DNA of 64,000 bases from an uncultured Methanoregulaceae archaeon (GTDB lineage: Archaea > Halobacteriota > Methanomicrobia > Methanomicrobiales > Methanospirillaceae). The translations under genes and the position numbers were made by a program. This document shows, piece after piece, positions 24,407 through 31,742 of the stretch. The notes below the pieces were generated by a model, which had not been told where the DNA came from, did no database searches, and was given only the letters and a program-made list of their open reading frames with translations. Numbering within the stretch: the stretch's first letter is position 1; every line of letters begins with the position of its first letter. The stretch is taken from contig OY969564.1 in NCBI GenBank assembly GCA_963701095.1, positions 2,464,001-2,528,000 of the forward strand, in the 5' to 3' direction.

Positions 24407-25453
24407 GCGATAACCCTCCCGATAACCGGTTCTCCGGCTTTTGGCATACTGACGTCCTCAATTGCCGGTTCGATTCTCCGGATCAGCTGCTTCTTCACTG
24501 GAGATGTAGAGCCGGTCGCCATGTTCACCTGCTACCAGAGGTCGTAGCTTAATCCGATCCGTAAACCCGAGCAACGTGTCAGATGTTGCCACACAGATTG
24601 CAAACGGGCCGTTCATAAGCGCCGGGCCATACGTTAGCCGAAGTGCCCTGTTGAGTTCCTGTTCTTTTGGTGGCATTTCGTCAATCTCATCCCAGAACGG
24701 TGGTGCCAGCGCACGTATTGCCAGTTTTTCCGAGAGACCGTGCTTCCTGACCAGTAAATCCACCAGGTACGCCACGACTTCAGTGTCAGTAAACATTGTG
24801 CACTTGTATCCGTCACTCTCGATATACCGCTGGTTGGTTCCGTACGAAGTGATTTCACCGTTATGAACGACACTCCAGTCAAGAAGGTTGAAGGGGTGTG
24901 CTCCTCCCCACCAGCCGGCAGTGTTCGTCGGGTACCTGTTGTGGGCAAGCCAAAGGTATCCTTTATAATCCTCAATCCGGTAGAAATTAGCGACCTGTTC
25001 AGGCCATCCCGAAGCCTTGAAGACGCCCATGTTCTTTCCCGATGAGAAGATAAGCGAACCTTTGTGTGTAGTATTTACCCGCATGACAAGCTCAGTGACC
25101 ATGTCGTCGGCTGTAGTCCGGGGCTCTTGTGCAAGACTTGTGTCAGGCAGATAGAAAAATCGCCATGGCGTGTGGACTTTTTTTATTCCCGCTTCGTAAG
25201 TCGGTATCGGTTCGTCATGGAAAATGGTACCCCATGATTCAAGTTCCTTGACGAGCGCCGGTTTGTCCTCTTTTACATCGTCAAAGAATACATGAAGGGC
25301 ATAGGCGTCCTTAAATTCAGGGTATATACCATAAGAAGCATAGCCGGCTCCCTCCCCGTTTCCCCGCTCGTTCATCATCGCGAGTGATGCTCGGATTTTA
25401 CTGCCGTCCATGAGATGGCGGCGTTTATCTATGACTCCAATAATTCCACACAT
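24403..25453 (-). CDS. Glutamate synthase amidotransferase subunit (GltB1); one apparent extra base at ~24485
   Basis: N-terminal MCG, HNRYPTNT, HPF, HNGEI, DTE. Removing one base restores SEEAAIRRIEP...AGEPVIGRVIA* with an ATGA overlap into gltB2. Confidence 0.92.
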
Positions 25454-25590
25454 TTTCTATCACAGTCGGGATGTCTGGTTAGCTTTTTGTTCCTTTGGGC
25501 TGGAAGCGCCGGTCGGAAATTGAAACGTATATTATTAGCACGTTCCCTGAATTGAATGTAATTATTCTCCTCAAAGGGTTAGTTCAGAAG

Positions 25591-25622
25591 ATATAAATGT
25601 AATTGGTTGGAAAATTAGTTCC
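25591..25622 (+). promoter_or_regulatory. glnA promoter: TATA box plus NrpR operator
   Basis: ATATAAAT at 25591-25598; GGAA-AATTAG-TTCC at 25609-25622, an exact GGAA-N6-TTCC, 3 nt before the ATG. Confidence 0.88.
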
Positions 25623-25625
25623 ATT

Positions 25626-26951
25626 ATGTCAGCAGACGTGGCTAAGTTGCTCAAGAAAATTAATGCCGATGACGTAAAATTTATCCGGCTCCAGTTTACC
25701 GATGTGCTGGGGATGCCAAAGAATGCGGCCATCCCTGTTGTTCAGGCAGAGAAATCCCTGACTGAAGGCACATGGTTTGACGGGTCGTCCATTGAAGGAT
25801 TTACCCGGATCGAGGAGTCGGACATGCTTTTAAAAGCGGATCCGGCATCATATACAACTCTCCCATGGAGACCTCAGGAGGGCAGGGTCGCCCGGTTCAT
25901 GTGTGATGTGTATACCTATGGAAACAAACCCTTCGAAGGCGACCCCCGCTACGTTTTAAAGAAAGTTCTGGCTGATGCTGCAAAGATGGGCTACACATTT
26001 AACACCGGCCCCGAACTCGAATTTTTCCTGTTCAATCTTGTCAATGGCAAGCCAACGACAGAGTTCCCCGACCAGGGGGCATACTTTGATCTTTCTCCCA
26101 ATGACAAAGCAGAAGATGTCCGCCGAGAAATCGTGCTCTCGCTTACCAGCATGGGTTTTGAGATCGAGATGTCACACCACGAGGTGGCGGCAAGCCAGCA
26201 CGAGATCGATTTCAAATACGCGGATGCACTCACGACTGCAGATCGGGTAATGACCTATAAATTTGCAACAAAAGCAATTGCACTCAAATATGGCCTGCAT
26301 GCTTCGTTTATGGCAAAACCAATCGCCGGGATCAACGGCAGCGGAATGCACACGCACGGTTCCCTTTCAAAGAACGGCAAGAATGCTTTCTATGATGCAA
26401 ATGCCCCGGATGGACTTTCTGACACAGCGCTCTATTACATAGGCGGTCTTCTCAAGCATGCAAAGGCAATCACCCGGGTTGCAAACCCGACCATTAACTC
26501 GTACAAGCGGCTTGTTCCGGGATATGAAGCTCCCTGCTACATCTCGTGGAGTACTACCAACCGGTCAGCACTCATCCGTGTGCCGGCAGCCCGTGGTAAC
26601 AGCACCCGTGCTGAATTCCGTAGTCCGGATCCGATGTGCAATCCGTACCTTACGTTTGCCTGTATGCTTGCTGCAGGTCTTGACGGTGTGAAAAACAAGA
26701 TCATGCCCCCGGACGCAACAAACACCAATATCTACCACCTGAATGCAAAAGAGCGCAAGAAAATGAAGATTGATATGCTGCCGGGAAGCCTCACTGAGTC
26801 CCACCAGTACCTGCTCAGGGACCAGGTTCTTTGTGATGCTCTCGGCCCGCATGTTGTCGAAACCCTCACACGTATTACTGAAGCTGAGACCGACGCTTTC
26901 CGTCTCGCGGTTCACCCGTGGGAACTGGACCGGTACCTCGCTACCTACTAA
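25626..26951 (+). CDS. glnA: Glutamine synthetase type I
   Basis: FDGSSIEGF, GPELEFF, HHEVA..QHEI, NGSGMH, NSYKRLVPGYEAP, NRSALIRVP, EFRSPDP. Confidence 0.97.
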   Translation: MSADVAKLLKKINADDVKFIRLQFTDVLGMPKNAAIPVVQAEKSLTEGTWFDGSSIEGFTRIEESDMLLKADPASYTTLPWRPQEGRVARFMCDVYTYGNKPFEGDPRYVLKKVLADAAKMGYTFNTGPELEFFLFNLVNGKPTTEFPDQGAYFDLSPNDKAEDVRREIVLSLTSMGFEIEMSHHEVAASQHEIDFKYADALTTADRVMTYKFATKAIALKYGLHASFMAKPIAGINGSGMHTHGSLSKNGKNAFYDANAPDGLSDTALYYIGGLLKHAKAITRVANPTINSYKRLVPGYEAPCYISWSTTNRSALIRVPAARGNSTRAEFRSPDPMCNPYLTFACMLAAGLDGVKNKIMPPDATNTNIYHLNAKERKKMKIDMLPGSLTESHQYLLRDQVLCDALGPHVVETLTRITEAETDAFRLAVHPWELDRYLATY

Positions 26952-26961
26952 TCTTACAATA

Positions 26962-27035
26962 TTTTCCCGCAAGGTGAGGGACAGACTGGACTTTTCATCC
27001 GGTAAATGCCCGTCGTCCATGTGGGTCCGGGAGAA
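26962..27035 (+). other. Predicted stem-loop, copy 1 of the amtB-upstream motif
   Basis: TTTTCCCG/CGGGAGAA outer stem, GGG(A)CA/TGCCC, apical ACTGGA-CTTTTCA-TCCGGT. Confidence 0.5.
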
Positions 27036-27167
27036 GACAGAAAGGATACGCACAGGTTCGCTACGTTCCGTCCGGCATTTATTGCCGTACCGTGGCATTC
27101 CCTCCTACCCGTATAAATTCTGGTCTTCTTTTGGCTCATTCGTGGACTCACAATAAAGTTACAGGAG

Positions 27168-28370
27168 ATGATTATGGCTCTGGATACCGGTGTTACAACT
27201 TGGCTCATGGTCTCGGCACTTCTGGTTATGCTGATGACCCCGGGCGTTGGGTTTTTTTATGGTGGACTTGTTCGAAAGAAGAATTTTATCTCGATGATCG
27301 CACTCTCTTTCCTGGTACTGGCGCTCACCAGCGTCCAGTGGATCATGATAGGGTATTCGCTTGCGTTCGGTTCAGACGTGGGAGGCTTTATCGGAAACCT
27401 TCAGTATCTTGGATTGAACGGCGTGAGTGCTACTGCTGGCACAGCAGCATATCCGCCGCTTGTCTACATGGCATTCCAGCTCTTCTTTGCCTCAGTCACG
27501 TTAACTATCGTTACGTCGGCTGTTGCAGAGAGGGTTAAACTGTCATCGTTTATTGTGTTCTCGCTCATCTGGTTGAGTGTAGTATACTGCCCGCTTGCAC
27601 ACTGGGCATGGGGCGGAGGCTGGGCACAACAGATGGGTCTTATTGATTTTGCCGGTGGCACCGTTGTCGAGATCTGTTCCGGTTTTGCCGCTCTTGCGCT
27701 CGCGCTGGTTATCGGCAAACGCGCCGGTTTTGGCGAATATTCGATAGAACCTCACAATATCCCGATTGCCCTTCTAGGTGCAGCCCTTCTCTGGTTTGGC
27801 TGGTTCGGGTTTAATGCCGGGAGTGCGCTTGCGGTTAACGGGAGCACGGTGACTGCATTTGTGAATACAAACACTGCTGCAGCCACCGGAGCACTTGCAT
27901 GGATGTTTGCCAGCTGGTACAATGGCAAACCCAGCTCCTTAGGTATGGTAAGTGGCGCGATTGCCGGAATGGTCGCAATCACACCTGCAGCCGGCTTTGT
28001 TACACCTCTTGTGGCAGTTCTTATTGGTGCCGTTGCAGGTGTACTCTGCTTTGGCATGATGCTCCTGAGAATCAGCAAACAGCTGGACGAAAGTCTGGAT
28101 GCATGGGCAATTCACGGGATGGGAGGAGTTTGGGGAACTCTAGCAACCGGCCTGTTTGCAGCAGCAGCAGTCGCCGGATTCTCCGGGCTCTTTGAAGGAA
28201 ATGTTCACCAGTTCCTGATAAATGCCCTGGGTGCAGGTGCCGCTGTCGTCTATGCCTTCGTAGTAACTTATGTTTTAGCGACTCTCATCGATCGCACTCT
28301 GGGATTGCGTGTCACACCTGACGAAGAATACGTCGGGCTTGACATTTGTCATCATGGTGAGAGGGCATAA
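27168..28370 (+). CDS. amtB: Ammonium transporter, Glu-His variant
   Basis: [47 protein letters not shown]. Confidence 0.95.
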   Translation: MIMALDTGVTTWLMVSALLVMLMTPGVGFFYGGLVRKKNFISMIALSFLVLALTSVQWIMIGYSLAFGSDVGGFIGNLQYLGLNGVSATAGTAAYPPLVYMAFQLFFASVTLTIVTSAVAERVKLSSFIVFSLIWLSVVYCPLAHWAWGGGWAQQMGLIDFAGGTVVEICSGFAALALALVIGKRAGFGEYSIEPHNIPIALLGAALLWFGWFGFNAGSALAVNGSTVTAFVNTNTAAATGALAWMFASWYNGKPSSLGMVSGAIAGMVAITPAAGFVTPLVAVLIGAVAGVLCFGMMLLRISKQLDESLDAWAIHGMGGVWGTLATGLFAAAAVAGFSGLFEGNVHQFLINALGAGAAVVYAFVVTYVLATLIDRTLGLRVTPDEEYVGLDICHHGERA

Positions 28371-28450
28371 CCTCTTTTCTTATTACCCTTTTTGAAATTA
28401 CATCCTTACAGGATCAATAACCGTTTTTCTTTCTCTCTCTCATTAATCAA

Positions 28451-28480
28451 AATATTAATATATCTAGGAATAGAACTTCC
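28451..28480 (+). promoter_or_regulatory. amtB2-glnK promoter: AT-rich TATA region plus NrpR operator
   Basis: AATATTAATATAT at 28451-28463; GGAA-TAGAAC-TTCC at 28467-28480. Confidence 0.85.
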
Positions 28481-28522
28481 TTCCTATAAAACATGGTACT
28501 TCATTAAGAGAGCCGATATCTC

Positions 28523-28645
28523 GCGGATAATCAGGCTGTGTGGGTGATACCGGACTTTTCATCCGGACCCTGTCTCCGGCAGCCTGATTCGTTTCCTGGT
28601 TCGGGAAAAAGATCCGCTGCTTTGCCGTCATTACGGTTCGCGGCA
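28523..28645 (+). ncRNA. Candidate structured 5' leader of amtB2 (copy 2 of the motif)
   Basis: GCGGAT/ATCCGC closes a junction holding a 10-bp perfect stem AATCAGGCTG/CAGCCTGATT (topped by GGGT/ACCC and CCGGA-CTTTTCA-TCCGG) and TTTCCTG-GTT-CGGGAAA; followed by a TGCCG/CGGCA hairpin. Confidence 0.5.
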
Positions 28646-28676
28646 TGAAGGGTCAGTTCAGTAAAAGGTGAATTAA

Positions 28677-30232
<1,556 letters not shown>

Positions 30233-30458
30233 AATAAATGGGTACTGATTCGGGATCCCGTCCCTTAAGTTCCAATTCGGGAAGGAGTTAATAATCGACT
30301 CTGCTTCCCTCTTTTTTTAATGATTCCACGTCTTTCGAGAAAACGGTGGAAATATATTTCTTATAATTCTATACTTAAAACGAATTCCCGGAATACTCTT
30401 GTTGGCTCTCTCGCATATTGTTATTTAGCCAGACGGTGAAAATCATAGGATATCTATC

Positions 30459-31742
30459 ATGATCCCGTGGCTCAATTCTAATTTTAAAAATTTTAAACCT
30501 ACAGCGGCAATTGCTCTCAATGCCACGCGGCACATGAATACAATGGAACGTAAAAAACTTTTTTCCCCCGATATCGAGCCCATGCGAACTGCAGAAGGAC
30601 GATGGTTTGAGGCAATCGTATACGAAATGTTCCTTGAGATTTCACAGAAATCCGGCCAGATAAAATATCTCGCGCGTAAGGGTGCGGATGCACCACATGC
30701 CGGTGCCCAGGCTCATCTAGGCCAAAACGGTATTTTTTATTCTAAATATGGGGACATAACCTTCCGGGGAAACGGTCAGGACCTGGCTGAATTTGATCTT
30801 ATGCTTGTCGATTCTGAGAATCAGGTCGCGTTTGGCGAAGTGGTCACCTCGCCGGCAGATCTCAAGGAATTTGAAGTCGAGATCGCTTTTAAAAAACGGT
30901 TACTTGGGTATCTCTATGGCCAGAAGCATGTCTCGTTTGTTCTTGTATCCTCCTTTGACATCTCAAACTATTCTGTAGTTAAGCGGCTTGCAAAAGATCC
31001 GGATAACGCGATCATCCATACCAGTTCCTGCGAGCAGATCAAATCACTGGTTAAACATTACCGGCCCCGTATTCTGTACACAAAACCCACAAACCATCCC
31101 AAGTTGATCCGTGCCACCGATATTCCGCAGAAAAACCCGATCGATTACCGGAAATGCCACGATGAGTTCAGGAACCGTCTTTTCTCCGATATCAAGGACG
31201 GCCACCGGGACACAAAGGAACTGGCACCTTCTACAGATACCGAAGCACTGGTCAAGAAGATTCTCTATGGCGCCCTGTATCCCCACGCGATAAAGGCTGT
31301 CTGTGAACAGTACGGTCTTGTAGTCCGGGGAAAACGTGTCGAATGGGCTGATTTTTTCGGGTATTTCTCTAAAGCGATTCTCGCTACTGATCTCCCCGGC
31401 TTTGAGCTCATCCTGTATCTCCGGTCCCGGGAGAAGACGGAGTATCTTAAGATGGTGCAGACAAAGGAAGGCCACTTCCGGTTTGAACGCCCGACTCCCT
31501 CACGAGTAGGTTTTTTTCTGTGGATCGAGTCGCTCCAACCTTCGCTAGGGACCAGGATTTCTCTTGAAATCCTAAAAACATTCAGTACAAAGGAGCCGGG
31601 AAAAAATAAATCCGTGATTTTCTCAACCGACTTTTTTTTAACTGACGTATTCAACCCTTCAGCCAGACAGGTCAGAGAATGGGAGCGCCTGTTAGCAGGT
31701 AAATTATCAGCACAATCACGATCTGGTGCACGAGATAGATAA
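30459..31742 (+). CDS. Hypothetical protein with N-terminal PD-(D/E)XK-like fold (start may be 30534 or 30543)
   Basis: GRWFEAIV...EFDLMLVD...FGEVV pattern; long clean ORF. Confidence 0.65.
   Translation: MIPWLNSNFKNFKPTAAIALNATRHMNTMERKKLFSPDIEPMRTAEGRWFEAIVYEMFLEISQKSGQIKYLARKGADAPHAGAQAHLGQNGIFYSKYGDITFRGNGQDLAEFDLMLVDSENQVAFGEVVTSPADLKEFEVEIAFKKRLLGYLYGQKHVSFVLVSSFDISNYSVVKRLAKDPDNAIIHTSSCEQIKSLVKHYRPRILYTKPTNHPKLIRATDIPQKNPIDYRKCHDEFRNRLFSDIKDGHRDTKELAPSTDTEALVKKILYGALYPHAIKAVCEQYGLVVRGKRVEWADFFGYFSKAILATDLPGFELILYLRSREKTEYLKMVQTKEGHFRFERPTPSRVGFFLWIESLQPSLGTRISLEILKTFSTKEPGKNKSVIFSTDFFLTDVFNPSARQVREWERLLAGKLSAQSRSGARDR

Follow-up and report, generated by a model that had tools for sequence, protein, structure and literature searches.

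A stem-loop conserved upstream of amtB in Methanoregulaceae: a candidate cis-regulatory RNA motif of narrow range

The nitrogen-assimilation cluster and its two hairpins

We analyzed a 64-kb stretch of DNA (the window) from the genome of an uncultured Methanoregulaceae archaeon, in which a similar hairpin lies upstream of each of two ammonium transporter genes. According to Pfam, the plus strand of the window carries a nitrogen-assimilation cluster composed of glnA (glutamine synthetase, 25626..26951; Gln-synt_C, 7.9e-132, and Gln-synt_N), amtB1 (27174..28370; Ammonium_transp, 5.8e-127), amtB2 (28677..29888; Ammonium_transp, 6.3e-132) and glnK (PII, 29903..30232; P-II, 3.1e-29). A Shine-Dalgarno (SD) sequence, GGAG, precedes amtB1 at 27164-27167, and split glutamate-synthase genes are located upstream of the cluster in divergent orientation. 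All features given below are on the plus strand unless stated otherwise. Both hairpins are instances of a conserved structured element linked to amtB, which among the genomes searched is found in Methanoregula and one sister genus.

An earlier note, made from the letters of the window, had reported that the two amtB upstream regions share an exact 15-mer, GGACTTTTCATCCGG. It is indeed present at 26988-27002 and 28552-28566, and no further site was detected in the window even at up to 2 mismatches (shuffled sequences had a mean of 0.24 sites, and 2 of 100 reached 2). The likeness of the two copies extends in the 5' direction, with 83% identity over 29 nt (26974-27002 versus 28538-28566). Genome-wide, one additional GGACTTTTCATCCGG-like site was found at 1 mismatch (C1:648487). 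This site is coding and overlaps the start codon of an unrelated minus-strand open reading frame (ORF); it was rejected as a third copy and taken as a chance match.

In both copies the tip is a 5-bp stem closed by the 7-nt loop CUUUUCA, and one pair within this stem varies compatibly, as had been noted (U-G in copy 1, C-G in copy 2). A covariance model of the tip (R1) matched copy 1, CUGGA-CUUUUCA-UCCGG (26986..27002), with 33.7 bits (E = 8.9e-5) and copy 2, CCGGA-CUUUUCA-UCCGG (28550..28566), with 31.0 bits (E = 4.3e-4). Each tip crowns a long stem, and the arms differ in sequence as described earlier. Copy 1 forms a long imperfect stem-loop in the glnA-amtB1 spacer (26966..27025; minimum free energy -27.1 kcal/mol, z score -1.0). 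This energy is not significant by itself, and orthologues retain a stem at this place. An alternative outer arm of copy 1 pairs TTTTCCCG (26962-26969) with CGGGAGAA (approximately 27028-27035). The long stem-loop of copy 2 (28529..28589; -29.6 kcal/mol, z -3.52) consists of an outer 10-bp helix formed by AATCAGGCTG (28529-28538) and CAGCCTGATT (28580-28589), a middle helix GGUGAUA/UGUCUCC and the tip, and it persists when the whole leader is folded. A small hairpin, GGUUC(C)GGG, follows this stem on its 3' side (28598-28612). It recurs in relatives (L179, L189, L198, L202 and L205) and is kept only in the clade of the closest amtB2 leaders.

Two other sequences had been proposed as recurring parts of the element. 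GGTTCG occurs in the window at chance frequency (37 sites versus 35.4 expected), and we found no support for CGGCA/TGCCG and GGTTCG belonging to one shared element. A palindrome of the same pattern as the tip, CCGGATTTTATATCCGG, is located at 1367-1383, in a convergent intergenic region 15 nt past the stop codon of ORF 879-1352; it has no link to amtB and is probably unrelated.

Conservation in relatives and the variable lower stem

The motif was searched for in 101 genomes of the family. At up to 1 mismatch, the 15-mer was detected in 51 of them and the reversed control in 12, while the exact 15-mer had 11 sites outside this genome, all of them upstream of amtB and on the same strand. Among 102 amtB upstream regions from 17 genera, a hairpin of the form NNGGA-YUUNNNN-UCCNN was present in 30, all in two genera: in 19 of 24 regions of the genus of the analyzed genome, in 11 of 13 of a second genus and in 0 of 65 of the remaining 15 genera. 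Its usual form before amtB is C(C/U)GGA-YUUNNNN-UCCGG. When R1 was run over 151 genomes of the order, matches at E < 1e-3 were exclusively at amtB loci of the two genera, and those in the own genome were the two amtB sites only. None of the 17 weak R1 matches in other families was beside amtB, glnA, glnK or a tRNA gene.

An exact 19-mer scan of one genome per species (185,579 species) returned 66 loci. All 18 loci titled Methanoregula, Methanoregulaceae or Methanomicrobiales had amtB downstream, and two further loci, from bins labelled otherwise, had a Methanoregulaceae-like amtB or glnA. The remaining 46 loci, nearly all bacterial by title, had neither gene. The two bins labelled otherwise, L299 and L305, are titled Rokubacteria and delta proteobacterium; their hairpin accompanies a Methanoregulaceae-like amtB (83% identity) or glnA (78%), and the contigs are probably mis-binned or mislabelled. 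In the two genera, 58 loci matched the hairpin pattern, of which 21 were at amtB, 13 in tRNA-Leu genes and 24 elsewhere; 22 of these 24 were inside ORFs of at least 90 aa. The restriction of the R1, 15-mer and 19-mer matches described above shows that the element is specific to amtB and is not a dispersed repeat, the alternative that the earlier note had named. The conservation in relatives that it had called for was found as well, since the hairpin is kept before amtB in two genera.

We gathered 68 distinct amtB-linked instances, which were reduced to 46 representatives below 55% flank identity; 15 of 40 additional pattern matches had no amtB start within reach and were left out. In 47 of the 68 instances, GGAA-N6-TTCC is located at most 120 nt upstream, the hairpin lies 63-130 nt (in one case 178 nt) before the start codon, and the gene is of the amtB2 type; with the promoter ahead of it, the hairpin thus falls within a long 5' leader. 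The other 21 have no such operator. Most of them are preceded by a glnA stop codon and an A/T tract, and the start of an amtB1-type gene is 97-193 nt further on, but three of the 21 are of the amtB2 type, with a deviant operator or with the DNA ended by a contig edge. Where glnA is directly followed by an amtB gene with its own NrpR-controlled promoter, no hairpin is present between the glnA stop codon and the promoter, and we therefore conclude that the hairpin goes with amtB and not with glnA. In addition, amtB leaders of genus g18 (L057, L069) carry another conserved hairpin approximately 38 nt before amtB, C(C/U)GGAA-(G/U)AAUG-UUCCAG, which resembles a pair of NrpR half-sites at N5 spacing.

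The tip is nearly constant across the 68 instances. Its upper stem is CCGGA/UCCGG in 53, CUGGA/UCCGG in 10, ACGGA/UCCGU in one (C-G to A-U) and another variant in 4. The loop is 7 nt long in all of them and occurs in 20 variants, among them CUUUUCA (22 instances), CUUUUUA (9) and CUUCUCA (6), and paralogous copies within one genome differ in it, e.g., CUUGUAA and CUUAAAA. Loop positions 1-3 read YUU, with these bases free to vary in the 40 instances found with the loop-blind pattern GGA-N7-TCC, and the 3' end of the loop has no mirrored AAR to match this 5' YUU. In 40 of the 46 representatives, the second base behind the stem on its 3' side was an unpaired A, while the mirror-image T at position -2 before the stem was present in only 15. 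Of the conserved loop on variable stems described in the earlier note, the variable lower stems stood. Conservation of the whole loop did not, given its 20 variants; what is held constant is the upper stem of 5 bp, the loop start YUU and the unpaired A.

Below the tip, the stems change sequence in relatives and yet remain complementary. When natural flanks were compared with shuffled flanks at fixed core pairs, the mean z score was -1.46, 28 of 40 instances were below -1, and the number of pairs enclosing the tip was 16.7 for natural versus 10.4 for shuffled flanks. Since the lower helices were impossible to align in columns with MAFFT, alignment-free tests were used, in which each left flank was folded with its own right flank or with the right flanks of unrelated instances. 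With flanks of 14/16 nt, the energies were -7.75 (own) versus -5.01 kcal/mol (cross), and 63 of 68 instances were better than their cross median; with 30/35 nt, they were -16.14 versus -11.45 kcal/mol. The advantage of the own flank was seen in 44 of the 46 representatives, and in both contexts (18 of 21 operator-less and 45 of 47 operator-type instances). The control, a set of 21 representative pattern hairpins from loci other than amtB, showed no such effect (-5.84 versus -5.45, with an advantage in 7 of 21).

By eye, the second helix has unrelated sequences in different instances (CAAU/AUUG, GAUC/GAUC, AACCAA/UUGGUU, and GGAU/AUCC versus AUCC/GGAU). In one fixed register, 56% of its cells were paired and the covariation score was 0.196 versus 0.126 after shuffling, with 0 of 500 shuffles as high; this score also exceeded those of all slid registers. 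RNAalifold applied to an ungapped alignment of 28 leaders recovered the invariant 5-bp tip only, with no covariation, because the bulges vary in size.

Transcript context and alternative explanations

The amtB2-glnK promoter consists of an A/T-rich, TATA-like box, TTAATATAT (28456..28464), and an NrpR-type operator, GGAATAGAACTTCC (28467-28480), with an extra TTCC behind it (28467..28484 in all), a layout shared by relatives. The operator seen before copy 2 in the earlier note is thus present, and the positions of the box and the operator predict a leader of approximately 190 nt. The NrpR operator consensus in the literature is GGAAN6TTCC (PMC2723118). The form GGAA-N6-TTCCTTCC has a single site genome-wide, the amtB2 operator, and the genome contains two genes with NrpR domains. 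The glnA promoter has a GGAA-N6-TTCC operator (25609..25622) preceded by a TATA-like box, GATATAAATG (25590-25599). Because the operator stops 3 nt before the ATG and the TATA-like box is approximately 30 nt upstream (25590-25628 in all), the glnA mRNA is probably leaderless or almost so.

Copy 1 has no NrpR operator of its own and follows the glnA stop codon and a T tract; the earlier caveat that it may belong to the glnA trailer still applies. Since its left arm starts at this T tract, copy 1 would need read-through from glnA in order to be part of an RNA. A TATA-like box, GTATAAAT (27111..27118), lies between copy 1 and amtB1; the position of such boxes between hairpin and amtB1 is not conserved among orthologues. 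Folded as a whole, the glnA-amtB1 spacer had a z score of -2.73, and in this fold GGGAGAAGACAGAA pairs with UUCUGGUCUUCUUUUGG over approximately 80 nt (27027-27135), enclosing the TATA-like box within a long-range helix. The hairpins do not have the form of an intrinsic terminator or attenuator, since neither has a U run directly behind it: UAAAUGCCC comes after copy 1, and ACCCUG after copy 2. In relatives, merely short runs of U4-5 follow the long stems, and their placement is inconsistent.

The element is almost certainly under selection. We consider it likely that it acts as a sense-strand RNA, because at amtB2-type loci the site is located behind the promoter and ahead of the start codon, the orientation to amtB is constant, and neither a gene nor a promoter was seen on the minus strand at the amtB leaders. 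Furthermore, flanks that co-vary to arbitrary sequences and a conservation that is not mirrored suggest a folded single strand rather than a DNA palindrome bound by a dimer. Several observations weigh against an RNA with a constant tip. The flanks fold alike on both strands (z -1.65 forward, -1.50 reverse; mean energy -23.5 kcal/mol forward versus -25.4 kcal/mol reverse), and within helices defined by Watson-Crick pairs, G-U and A-C combinations are nearly balanced (6 versus 5); with energies and counts that are strand-neutral, only the context argues for the sense strand. Covariation is absent from the upper stem, in which GGA/UCC is invariant and the lone change, from C-G to A-U, is at the outermost pair. 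A DNA site would look alike in this respect. The search pattern itself imposed YUU in 28 of the 68 instances. Finally, copy 1 and its orthologues lie approximately 17-22 nt past an A/T tract, possibly a terminator or a TATA box, so that the left arm of copy 1-type sites may escape transcription, and some orthologues have TATA-like boxes further downstream. In summary, conservation, paired variable stems and the link to amtB partly support the RNA-level element proposed earlier; action at the RNA level is an inference, and the fold is alike on both strands.

Our favoured, if tentative, reading is an RNA stem-loop that acts in cis, layered on NrpR control, and to whose invariant tip a putative trans-acting factor docks. 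The element would be an imperfect stem-loop of 60-75 nt with freely varying lower helices and a near-constant tip. Copy 2 would be transcribed in the leader of amtB2, approximately 190 nt long, behind the NrpR-controlled promoter, and copy 1 would reach RNA by read-through from glnA into the amtB1 spacer. The tip would serve as the docking site of the factor, most likely a protein, which would set the translation or stability of the amtB mRNA as a second layer over NrpR repression. We put docking of a factor, as opposed to another RNA mechanism, at slightly less than an even chance.

Among such other mechanisms, a structural hairpin without a specific partner, which would protect against nucleases or serve as a processing site uncoupling amtB1 from glnA, is unlikely. 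The long stable stem, the position of copy 1 between two cistrons and the freedom of the lower-stem sequence to vary are all as expected for it; a mere stabiliser, though, would not keep a 5-bp stem, three bases of the loop and an unpaired A constant in two genera while its surroundings diverge. Another reading is a small riboswitch-like sensor in which the internal loop and the tip bind glutamine, 2-oxoglutarate or ammonium and thereby refold the leader. The long leader of a nitrogen gene and conserved unpaired bases beside variable helices are in line with such a sensor, as is the bacterial glutamine riboswitch, which precedes amt and glnA genes (PMC2864571). We nevertheless judge it improbable: few bases are conserved beyond one plain hairpin, the ribosome-binding region is not engaged in any alternative pairing that is conserved, and Rfam has no match to the element. 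Searching 25000-31000 on both strands with cmscan at E ≤ 10 returned only unrelated weak matches (mir-6129, Prion_pknot and DnaX), in agreement with the earlier view that the element is not a recognised family.

The tip could also present its loop, in an anticodon-like U-turn that favours fast pairing, to a small RNA (sRNA) or to a distant part of the leader such as the region 5' of the SD sequence. The shape is right (U at position 2, non-Watson-Crick first and last bases), and some loop variants have matching words near the SD sequence (UUAUCU/AGAUAA, UUCUCAU/AUGAGAA). When loops were permuted among 28 leaders, the own match was longer (5.32 versus 4.73 nt, p = 0.014), and likewise for n = 47 (4.89 versus 4.43 nt, p = 0.014). 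The effect is small and vanishes on an energy measure (p = 0.15-0.6); there was no excess of pairing with the SD region in the 21 operator-less instances, and the position of the partner words is inconsistent. Such pairing is weakly suggested by the word-length measure, and we rate loop docking of this kind as improbable. Pairing of one sRNA with the whole loop is unlikely, since paralogues in one genome carry different loops.

If the site acted as DNA, CCGGA-N7-TCCGG could be an operator for a dimeric regulator, e.g., an NrpR-like protein. The invariant half-sites, the similarity of GGA/TCC to NrpR half-sites, the two NrpR-domain genes, the strand-neutral fold and the location of the glnA-amtB1 site approximately 20 nt past a possible TATA box are compatible with this. 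A protein-DNA site does not require flanks that co-vary to arbitrary sequences, the conservation is not mirror-symmetric, 47 of the 68 sites are 55-110 bp downstream of the promoter at variable distance, and the spacing is unlike that of GGAA-N6-TTCC, all of which makes an operator doubtful. The least probable reading is that the fold belongs to a transcript antisense to the amtB leaders. Folding of the reverse strand is as good as that of the forward strand, if not better; the constant orientation to amtB and the lack of a visible minus-strand gene or promoter speak against it, as does the loss of a reverse mini-ORF starting at the CAT of the loop. The corresponding minus-strand peptide, MKSPV..., was rejected, since CUUUUUA, CUUGUAA and further loop variants no longer contain the CAT. 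A reading frame conserved across the hairpin was not found either, as the flanks have indels and show no 3-base pattern.

Docking of a protein factor, as favoured above, could take a more specific form, in which the tip is a true anticodon-arm mimic, recognised by a protein that binds or modifies tRNA and reads C32-U33-U34 on CCGGA/UCCGG. All 20 loop variants have the geometry of an anticodon arm, i.e., 7 nt, U at position 2 and C-A, U-U, U-C or C-C ends; in 28 of the 68 instances, the search pattern dictated positions 1-3. In these genera, tRNA-Leu(UAA) (CCGGACUUAAGAUCCGG) or tRNA-Leu(UAG) has the CCGGA/UCCGG of the tip as its anticodon stem, e.g., at C1:233010-233094 of the own genome and at the loci L119, L120, L127, L129 and L143, and the amtB variant with loop CUUAAAA is one base off the tRNA-Leu(UAA) arm. 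Positions 3-5, where the anticodon would be, show at least 9 triplets (UUU, UAU, UGU, UAA, UCU, UUC and others), so that no single tRNA is mimicked, and loop position 6 is mostly C or U (CUUUUCA, CUUUUUA, CUUCUCA), while the corresponding tRNA position 37 is a purine. Because the stem is shared with 1 of the 48 tRNAs of this genome, the identity to tRNA-Leu may be due to chance. ARAGORN found no tRNA in the window, and the tip is not part of a cloverleaf, as its flanks pair together and extend the hairpin. We thus regard true mimicry as a long shot. If true, it would couple ammonium uptake, at the post-transcriptional level, either to the state of the tRNA pool or to a tRNA pathway that depends on amides, and would represent thrS-type operator mimicry in an archaeon as well as a first cis-acting nitrogen RNA switch in methanogens, possibly in cooperation with a conserved upstream AUG-Gln mini-ORF.

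In the amtB2 leader, an upstream AUG opens an 8-codon mini-ORF whose stop codon is within the SD sequence AGGUGA (28645..28671), and this AUG recurs in relatives. An AUG at -36 to -23 was present in 35 of 47 amtB2-type leaders (e.g., L033, L038, L039, L045 and L128) versus 48 of 164 control windows, and in 16 of the 35 it was followed by a Gln codon (CAA/CAG). The mini-ORFs have 1-12 codons and often stop in the SD sequence (GGUGA) or overlap the amtB start codon (UGAAUG). The upstream AUG could mark a leader mini-ORF or be part of an RNA box (ATGCA in 20 of 47).

Comparison with known systems

We take the amtB-specific element, which is narrow in range, to be most probably a new cis-regulatory RNA motif. 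Archaeal cis-regulatory RNAs are rare, and accounts of nitrogen control in methanogens centre on NrpR as a transcriptional repressor; the element, if it acts as proposed, would add a second, post-transcriptional layer to ammonium uptake. Confinement to two genera limits its general importance. Methanoregulaceae are abundant methane producers in peat and freshwater sediments, and the covariance model can be used for annotating those of their genomes that carry the element. The motif is small (a 17-nt tip on a 60-75-nt stem), with clear constant and variable parts, and is thus directly testable. In the accessible portions of the literature on amtB, NrpR, leaders and structured RNAs in Methanomicrobiales and archaea, we found no account of the hairpin.

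The nearest comparison within the cluster is the NrpR operator, which resembles the hairpin in its genes, its place in leaders and its inverted repeat with GGA/TCC cores. In the operator the cores are arranged as GGA-N8-TCC, while in the tip they are one base closer (GGA-N7-TCC, i.e., GGAC-N5-ATCC). Moreover, the operator adjoins the TATA box at the transcription start and the hairpin is 55-110 nt further downstream (47 instances), so the hairpin does not group with NrpR operators. It also differs from them in its co-varying flanks and its asymmetric conservation.

The glnA RNA (glutamine riboswitch) and the Downstream-peptide motif are bacterial three-stem folds with a pseudoknot. As with the element, these cis-RNAs precede genes for ammonium transporters, glnA and PII, in some cases as tandem copies, and they occur in cyanobacteria and marine bacteria (PMC2864571). 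Their covariance models did not match the element, which is a single long hairpin and archaeal.

Anticodon-arm mimics offer another parallel. The E. coli thrS operator is such a mimic in an mRNA leader, and operators of this type likewise combine a 5-bp stem with a 7-nt loop that has U as its second base and non-Watson-Crick ends. They differ from the amtB tip in having a fixed anticodon and a purine at position 37 for one tRNA.

The iron-responsive element (IRE) is a protein-binding stem-loop recognised by the iron regulatory protein (IRP). As in the amtB element, its lower stem is variable, one unpaired base is conserved, and a constant apical loop closes an upper stem of 5 bp, and both are used in a 5' leader as well as after another gene. 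A constant tip with an unpaired A on a variable stem, used in these two contexts, thus corresponds to a factor-binding pattern of the IRE kind. The IRE is eukaryotic and unrelated in sequence, and in the amtB element the sequence of the upper stem is fixed as well; the similarity is an analogy, not homology.

Among archaea, Methanosarcina mazei has a nitrogen-responsive sRNA, sRNA154, and long 5' untranslated regions of nitrogen genes. We know of no homologous hairpin in that system. Whereas sRNA154 is trans-acting and belongs to another order, the amtB hairpin is read as a cis element; like sRNA154, it would act on archaeal nitrogen genes at the post-transcriptional level, in addition to NrpR.

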